A stretch of DNA of 64,000 nucleotides from Escherichia phage vB_EcoM-UFV09 (MZ291552.2); one strand, 5' to 3'. Counted from the first letter of the stretch, positions 6,645-7,457 are shown. Notes: generated by a model not told the origin, from the sequence alone. A program made the numbers and translations.

Positions 6645-6929
6645 TTACAAAAGATTTTTAGCAATAATTTTAAGCTGAGCTACTGAAATATGCTTGGCTT
6701 TAAACAAAGCAGTTTCTTCAGCAGGGGAGATAACGATTGTAGCACCATCTTTCTTAGCGGACCATCCATCACCCAGGTAAACAGTACCTTTGACTTCTTC
6801 GCCATCAACCAGGCTAATCATCGGTTTACCTTCACGTCCTTTGTTTGCTTTAATAACTTCAGAAGTAAGGGTCGCTTCAGTCAAAGTAGAAGCGTTAGTG
6901 GTTGAAGTGAATTCTTGATAAGTTTTCAT
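6645..6929 (-). CDS. ipI: Internal protein I precursor (head-packaged, injected anti-restriction protein)
   Basis: 94 aa with N-terminal targeting sequence MKTYQEF and LTE cleavage-type sites; sits next to 57B, the T4 ipI position. Confidence 0.85.
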   Translation of the reverse strand: MKTYQEFTSTTNASTLTEATLTSEVIKANKGREGKPMISLVDGEEVKGTVYLGDGWSAKKDGATIVISPAEETALFKAKHISVAQLKIIAKNLL

Positions 6930-6959
6930 TTTATTTTCCTAATTAATTTTGATGAGGTA

Positions 6960-6989
6960 ATAGTATCACTACCTCATCAGCATGTAAAC
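6960..6989 (-). promoter_or_regulatory. T4 early-type promoter for ipI
   Basis: Minus strand: GTTTACA -35, 17-bp spacer, TACTAT -10; the -10 lies in the loop of the 6951-6978 inverted repeat. Confidence 0.5.
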
Positions 6990-7001
6990 AACTTTGTGAA
7001 A

Positions 7002-7457
7002 TTATTTTAAATCATCTGCCCAATCGAATTTAAGAGGCTCTTTGTATTCACGATCTAATACGACCGGAATTTGTACATCACCGCTAAATGATAAGGGCCC
7101 AACATTATAAGACAATGTTATATGCGGTGTGTAATCATCAAAATCATGTGTAGCACCTAGTGCCCGCGCATACATGTGTCGACAGCGCAAATATTCAGAA
7201 TCTAGTACAAGTACAAGAGTAGATCCATCTTGTGTTTTCCATACTTCTAAATGTCCAGAAGAAGCTACTTCAAAACTTCCGCTTGATGGAACATATGGAA
7301 CATTTACTCTCGAATAACATATAGTCGAATGAATTTTTTCTCTAGGAACTGGATTAGGAACACGTAAAGAGCGCTGAAGTTCTTCCAGCGCATCAAGTGT
7401 TAATTCTGAAAACTTAGCTGCTACATAAAGACCCGTTGAAAAGTCTTTAAATTCCAT
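7002..7457 (-). CDS. 57B: 57B protein, 2H-phosphoesterase fold (T4 anti-CBASS Acb1 family)
   Basis: Two H-x-T/S motifs (HSTICYS and HITLSY) typical of 2H phosphoesterases; position between ipI and 57A; about 151 aa. Confidence 0.8.

Follow-up and report, generated by a model that had tools for sequence, protein, structure and literature searches.

T4 57B was named Acb1 after activity-guided fractionation for cGAMP cleavage (Hobbs et al. 2022, Nature, PMC9117128). In the T4 enzyme, H44, T46, H113 and T115 were defined as the catalytic tetrad, Y12, W74, F107 and W147 as stacking residues and E141 as the adenine-reading residue, and a lid formed by residues 145-152 closes over the ligand (PMC9117128). 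The enzyme cleaves cGAMP, cUA and cAAA, and activity is lost in the H44A/H113A mutant (PMC9117128). On a CBASS host, acb1 becomes relevant to fitness (HIDEN-SEQ preprint). In published T4 transcriptomes, 57B falls into the middle/late expression class.

Internal protein I (IPI) is present at about 360 copies per capsid and is injected along with the DNA. The role of the leader carried by internal proteins is packaging into the capsid (PMC12373910). IPI inhibits the GmrSD of E. coli CT596 and Eco94GmrSD (PMC4437046; PMC12373910). The anti-GmrSD work on IPI is attributed to Bair et al. 2007, Rifat et al. 2008 and He et al. 2015 (PMC4437046). Ip1, Ip2 and Ip3 each inhibit different GmrSD variants with zero cross-protection, Ip1 acting on the CT596 GmrSD (PMC12373910). 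The ip locus of T-even phages is polymorphic (Repoila et al. 1994), and PeSLs have previously been recorded at T-even ip loci (PMC4122927; Arbiol et al. 2010, PMC2839356), with TTTACW-N17-TAYWAT as the promoter consensus in T4/PST (Comeau et al. 2014, PMC4122927). The ip slot is a recognised counter-restriction hotspot because Bas37_0260, another gene found there, inhibits McrBC (HIDEN-SEQ preprint).

The window analysed here is a stretch of 64,000 nucleotides from Escherichia phage vB_EcoM-UFV09 (MZ291552.2). Nucleotide comparison of positions 6300-7900 matched 836 phage records, with 100% identity to Escherichia phages vB_EcoM-UFV05, 06, 10 and 11 and 95.8% identity to T4 across the same interval. 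By these comparisons, the phage is a Tequatrovirus and a close relative of T4. The T4 gene order trna.2-trna.3-trna.4-ipI-57B-57A-1-3-2-4 is kept, and the T4 record annotates trna.4, ipI, 57B, 57A and 1 over the matching interval with their order unchanged. Read in the direction of transcription, the genes run 1 > 57A > 57B > ipI > trna.4, five ORFs in a row that all lie on the minus strand:

7699-8451, minus strand: gene 1, ORF of 250 aa
7457-7699, minus strand: 57A, tail-fibre assembly chaperone, ORF of 80 aa (Pfam GP57, E 2.6e-50)
7002-7457, minus strand: 57B/acb1, predicted 2H-phosphoesterase against CBASS cyclic oligonucleotides, ORF of 151 aa
6645-6929, minus strand: ipI, internal protein I precursor, ORF of 94 aa with its stop codon at 6645-6647
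6383-6568, minus strand: trna.4, ORF of 61 aa

Both ORFs that the initial annotation had proposed for this interval are present exactly where it placed them, on the minus strand. Its description of the pair as lying upstream of 57A applies in plus-strand coordinates only; on the coding strand the two genes are downstream of 57A. In the record of UFV05, ipI and 57B are both labelled 'hypothetical protein'. PADLOC models gave zero matches among six proteins of the locus, as is expected of a collection that describes host defence proteins and not phage counter-defence.

Beyond trna.4 come trna.3, trna.2, an extra ORF of 171 aa and a block of 11 tRNA genes. The 171-aa ORF (5167-5682, minus strand) is situated between trna.2 and tRNA-Gln; it occurs in Kha5h and Bas43 and in diverged form in JS10, and T4 is without it. 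It had no Pfam or PADLOC match and was assigned only to PHROG 2290, of unknown function. The tRNA cluster (4066-5080, minus strand) contains genes for Arg, His, Asn, Tyr, Met, Thr, Ser, Pro, Gly, Leu and Gln, 11 as compared with 8 in T4, and no segB homing-endonuclease gene was found within it.

Our reading of the pair, held with high confidence, is that two independent, already characterised T4-type counter-defence genes stand side by side, together with the full mechanism described below. The assignment of 57B is carried by family matches. The ORF matched the Pfam Acb1 model PF23474 at E 1.1e-59 with 200.8 bits (cut-off 27), residues 8-149 covering profile positions 1-144 of 144, and matched the crystal-structure sequence of Erwinia phage FBB1 Acb1 (PDB 7T26/7T27) at E 1.3e-61. 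Alignment with T4 57B gave 150 identical residues out of 151. The two catalytic motifs were located as follows:

7323-7331, minus strand: first catalytic H-x-T, H43-S44-T45 (T4 H44/T46), aligned with H-T-T of FBB1 Acb1 (7T26)
7116-7124, minus strand: second catalytic H-x-T, H112-I113-T114 (T4 H113/T115), within YTPHITLSY, aligned with H-I-T of FBB1 Acb1

The initial annotation had regarded the two H-x-T/S motifs as diagnostic and had proposed an alignment with Acb1 as the check. Both His pairs turned out to be positionally equivalent to the T4 pairs H44/T46 and H113/T115, so that the motifs do stand at the catalytic positions; two H-x-[ST] triplets in 151 aa, however, are not significant alone. 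All nine named Acb1 residues are kept (Y12, H44, T46, W74, F107, H113, T115, E141 and W147 in T4 numbering). T4 57B/Acb1 (NP_049750.1) thus shares with the window the overlap with the 57A stop codon, the HxT/HxT tetrad, the stacking aromatics, the adenine-reading Glu and the C-terminal lid, which is present in the window on a full-length C-terminus. The sole difference is at lid residue 1, F144 in the window and L145 in T4. Window numbering is that of T4 minus one, the first Met of the annotated T4 protein being absent; T4 57B is one Met longer because the 57A stop is TGA in T4, which makes ATGATG, and TAA in the window. At the DNA level, 7 of 456 positions of 57B differ from T4 (1.5%). The window 57B is, on these alignments, an Acb1 orthologue and would be expected to cleave CBASS cyclic oligonucleotides as the T4 enzyme does. 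The identification of T4 57B as the founding Acb1, proposed in the initial annotation, agrees with Hobbs et al. 2022 and extends to the window through the 150/151 identity.

The ipI ORF matched Pfam IPI_T4 (PF11634) at E 1.3e-51 with 173 bits (cut-off 25), residues 19-94 covering profile positions 1-76 of 76, and PHROG 4363 'internal virion protein' at E 1.8e-48. The mature part matched 2JUB, the sequence of the T4 IPI* NMR structure, at E 7.5e-43 with 73 of 76 residues identical (96%). Residue 1 of the 2JUB chain aligns at A19 (ATLTSEV...), directly after ...STLTE, and the mature N-terminus would therefore follow the L-x-E site. Sites of the L-x-E type are cut by the T4 prohead protease. The parts of the precursor and the protease expected to act on it are:

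6876-6929, minus strand: capsid-targeting IPI leader, codons 1-18, MKTYQEFTSTTNASTLTE, with an L-x-E prohead-protease site at its end
6648-6875, minus strand: mature IPI* of 76 aa, predicted injected GmrSD inhibitor, delimited by the 2JUB alignment
35897-36535, plus strand: gene 21 prohead protease, expected to cut the IPI leader in trans (Pfam Peptidase_S77, E 1.5e-111)

Gene 21 is followed by ORFs of 269, 521 and 427 aa, which we take to be gp22, gp23 and gp24 by T4 gene order. By analogy with T4, we infer that the IPI leader is cleaved by gp21. Naming the gene internal protein I was right, given the IPI_T4 match and the 73/76 identity to the 2JUB chain. The MKTYQEF leader from which the initial annotation had argued is present and is of the head-targeting type, but the leader of T4 IPI itself is MKTFKEF. 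MKTYQEF is the form on other ip genes; in ECML-123-2, Bas43 and JS10 it stands at the start of unrelated ip ORFs that occupy the same slot. The block on GmrSD-type restriction that had been ascribed to IPI is established for T4 IPI (PMC4437046; PMC12373910). On the family and structure matches, ipI of the window is a true IPI orthologue, from which inhibition of GmrSD would be expected as from T4 IPI*.

How the two genes came to be neighbours was examined at the junctions on either side of 57B. On one side, the 57A stop codon overlaps the 57B start (TAATG; junction GAAGAATAATGGAA), an arrangement found in 7 of 7 intact loci, namely the window, T4, ECML-123-2, Kha5h, JS10, a Klebsiella T4-like phage and Yersinia phage phiR1-RT. 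On the other side, the content of the slot that follows 57B varies among the eight loci compared:

Window, T4 and Kha5h: ipI
ECML-123-2: two ip genes other than ipI, both with leaders
Bas43 (TadeuszReichstein): one different ip gene
JS10: a 58-aa ORF and another ip gene
Klebsiella and Yersinia T4-like phages: no ip gene

The acb1/57B gene of Bas43 (Escherichia phage TadeuszReichstein of the BASEL collection, 2501-2956) has an in-frame stop at codon 60 (...VPYVPSS*SFEV...) and is otherwise nearly identical; barring suppression of this stop or an error in the sequencing, Bas43 Acb1 is probably inactive.

The distribution of the two proteins was compared using tblastn. Homologues of 57B were found in 1484 phage records from many genera, and IPI was found in 292, nearly all of them close T4 relatives. 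In about 500 records 57B is at least 95% identical, and only about 280 of these have IPI. Divergence from T4 also differs along the locus. In the mature ipI DNA, 24 of 231 positions differ (about 10%), whereas the flanking repeats are 96-98% identical. Divergence of about 10% within the gene against 2-4% in its flanks is the pattern to be expected if cassettes were exchanged at the repeats. Two further patches of 70-77% identity to T4, at 8051-8100 in gene 1 and at 6001-6100 in trna.3, stand out from genes that are otherwise 96-100% identical, and suggest small mosaic recombination tracts.

The repeats themselves are direct copies of about 90 nt (6554-6639 and 6915-7002) that flank ipI on both sides, with component families D1 (54 nt, 81%) and D3 (26 nt, 81%) at a spacing of 361-363 nt. 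Each contains a PeSL-type element, and a late-promoter-like box lies farther upstream:

6930-7001, minus strand: PeSL-type element between 57B and ipI, with promoter TTTACA-17-TACTAT preceded by TG at 6960-6988 and a 13-bp hairpin at 6950-6979
6569-6644, minus strand: second PeSL copy, between ipI and trna.4, with promoter at 6597-6625 and hairpin at about 6588-6620
8055-8062, minus strand: TATAAATA, late-promoter-like box inside gene 1, upstream of 57A-57B-ipI and kept at the equivalent T4 position

Both copies read TTTACA-17-TACTAT with TG and fit the T4/PST consensus TTTACW-N17-TAYWAT. The pattern GTTTACA-N15-19-GATACTAT occurred twice in 64 kb, both times in the repeats, against 0 expected. 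Generic sigma-70 matches between 5900 and 8600 were not in excess (13 versus 11.2 expected from shuffles), and significance is confined to the extended pattern with its two copies. Both hairpins fold at -17.4 kcal/mol, with z -3.69 for 6930-7001 and z -2.63 for 6569-6644, and in both PeSL copies the hairpin encloses the -10 box of its own promoter. The stems are unlike, GATGAGGTA/TACCTCATC in one copy and ATAGGGT/ACCCTAT in the other at an equal left-arm position, which looks like compensatory change preserving the hairpin structure. We make no terminator claim for these hairpins because an intrinsic-terminator scan of both intergenic regions called none, the stems being without a following T-run. 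A search of positions 1-9000 with Rfam at gathering thresholds returned tRNAs only, and the intergenic hairpins are therefore outside the known RNA families. The window resembles the described PeSL cassettes in having a repeated promoter and a stable stem-loop around a non-essential gene that is replaced in relatives. It differs in the placement of the stem-loop: described PeSL cassettes have it upstream of the promoter, with a terminator half in the definition, whereas in the window it surrounds the -10 box and is without a T-run. The TATAAATA box in gene 1 could supply late transcription for the head-packaged IPI.

The gap between ipI and 57B is only 72 nt, both genes are on the same strand, and the slot beside 57B holds inhibitors of nucleic-acid-targeting defences in several phages. 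These facts, with a late read-through from the TATAAATA box that could span 57B and ipI, might be taken to mean that the two genes are a co-regulated anti-defence operon or island, kept together by selection and expressed as one unit. We consider this unlikely. It is 57A with which 57B overlaps in every intact locus examined, including the Klebsiella and Yersinia T4-like phages that have no ip gene after it, and ipI has its own promoter, with a strong hairpin between it and 57B. The difference between 1484 and 292 phage records does not fit a pair kept together, and the roughly sevenfold higher divergence of ipI than of 57B from T4 implies separate histories. In addition, the other T4 counter-defence genes named in the cited papers, among them PMC12373910, are elsewhere in the genome: ip2 and ip3 at a second locus, and vs.4/acb2. 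The adjacency is real and is kept in T4-like coliphages, but it looks like inherited synteny rather than a co-regulated anti-defence operon. The most likely reading is that an anti-CBASS gene is fixed at the margin of the conserved 1-57A-57B block and is followed by a hyperplastic ip slot. The phrase 'small anti-defence locus' used in the initial annotation is thus a fair description, but a functional two-gene module was not borne out; what is present is a variable ip slot beside the 1-57A-57B block.

An ORF elsewhere in the window has features in common with ipI. It encodes 157 aa (2842-3315, minus strand), starts with MKSYTQFLNEAVLNEASS, which is like a capsid-targeting leader (compare MKTYQEFIAE), and contains two protease-type sites of the form L-N-E|A. 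A TATAAATA late-promoter box (3352-3359, minus strand) lies 37 nt upstream. The ORF belongs to PHROG 2280, of unknown function, is labelled 'hypothetical protein' in 25 of 25 records sampled from 511 matching ones, and occupies the position where the T4 record has e.7, e.8, rnaC and rnaD. Its leader-like start and protease-type sites make it a candidate for one more protein that is packaged in the head and injected.

The comparison of the IPI allele with that of T4 bears on whether the window protein still does what T4 IPI does. In a global alignment of window IPI (94 aa) with T4 IPI (95 aa), 86 residues were identical. T4 IPI has the same slot between 57B and trna.4, the same 76-aa mature domain and an L/I-T-E|A site at the equal place. 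The leader differs, MKTYQEFTSTTN-ASTLTE in the window as compared with MKTFKEFTSTTTPVSTITE in T4, by 6 substitutions and one indel, which makes the window leader one residue shorter. In the mature domain, codon comparison gave 20 synonymous and 3 non-synonymous changes, the latter placing V46, V83 and Q85 in the window where T4 has I, A and H. This ratio of 20:3 indicates purifying selection on what would be the same protein. The window allele matched 31 phage records at 95% identity or above and about 200 at 90-95%, the band to which T4 belongs.

Since strict pairing between Ip proteins and GmrSD variants has been reported (PMC12373910), and the ipI ORF is the segment of the locus most diverged from T4, with a leader altered at 6 positions and by one indel, window IPI might have diverged in function, either to target another GmrSD variant or to serve as a packaged core protein only. 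We regard such a divergence as very improbable: the mature domain is 96% identical to T4 IPI* and under apparent purifying selection, all three substitutions in it (I to V, A to V, H to Q) are conservative, and the leader, where the differences are many, would be removed before the protein acts. An adaptive version of the same idea would take V46, V83 and Q85 and the MKTYQEF-type leader of IPI, along with F144 of Acb1, as retargeting and not as neutral drift. If this were true, IPI* might neutralise a GmrSD variant beyond the reach of T4 IPI*, and the lid change F144 might widen the range of cyclic oligonucleotides that Acb1 cleaves; but altered specificity through the IPI* or the Acb1 lid substitutions is very unlikely.

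Finally, a main role of 57B in RNA repair or processing, as a LigT-like 2'-5' RNA ligase or 2',3'-cyclic phosphodiesterase that is perhaps tRNA-linked and for which cyclic-oligonucleotide cleavage would be secondary, is suggested by the 'RNA ligase' label on PHROG 755 and on RefSeq 57B records, a weak Pfam 2_5_RNA_ligase2 match (E 0.073), the 2H-phosphoesterase fold class of Acb1 and a distance of about 2 kb to the 11-tRNA cluster, but is very improbable given that this match reaches 13.5 bits against a cut-off of 27 and 200.8 bits for the Acb1 model, that T4 57B was found through cGAMP-cleavage fractionation with a T4 acb1-deletion lysate assayed beside wild type (PMC9117128), that depletion of acb1 insertions is specific to a CBASS host (HIDEN-SEQ preprint), and that the window keeps every one of the ligand-stacking residues that are specific for cyclic di- and trinucleotides. 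The weak 2_5_RNA_ligase2 match reflects the common 2H fold, and this is probably why PHROGs and RefSeq carry the 'RNA ligase' label.

We thus return to two independent T4-type genes, for which the following mechanism is proposed. The product of 57B/acb1 would be a metal-independent 2H-phosphoesterase that clears the second messenger of CBASS before the effector can be triggered. Because its start overlaps the 57A stop codon, 57B is likely to be co-transcribed and translationally coupled with the 1-57A block, and this would take place in the middle/late period. The 94-aa IPI precursor would be directed to the prohead by its 18-residue leader, cut by the gp21 protease after L-T-E, and injected with the DNA as the 76-aa IPI*, which would block GmrSD-type type IV restriction of glucosyl-hmC DNA. 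For the enzymatic activity of Acb1, the inhibition of GmrSD, the packaging and the cleavage, this scheme follows the T4 literature. As for the gene itself, ipI would be a cassette complete in itself, served by a sigma-70 early promoter of its own and lying between two PeSL copies of about 90 nt, and the repeats are likely recombination sites for swapping ip genes into the slot. The use of this promoter, the coupling of 57B to 57A and recombination at the repeats are inferred from an arrangement whose elements, namely the identity of both proteins, the catalytic and ligand residues, the anatomy of repeats, promoters and hairpins and the variability of the slot, were observed directly. Nothing in the sequence contradicts this reading.

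Both genes and the overall picture are already known and are textbook T4 biology. The literature that covers this picture comprises Repoila 1994, Arbiol 2010, Hobbs 2022, PMC12373910 and the HIDEN-SEQ preprint. The main value of the present analysis is in annotation, where the names acb1 and ipI can be given to the two genes with confidence. In several deposited genomes from this group of phages, one or both genes appear as 'hypothetical protein', and the wrong label 'RNA ligase' is frequent for 57B. The locus illustrates clearly how a conserved anti-CBASS enzyme stays in place beside a slot of swapped, injected anti-restriction proteins.
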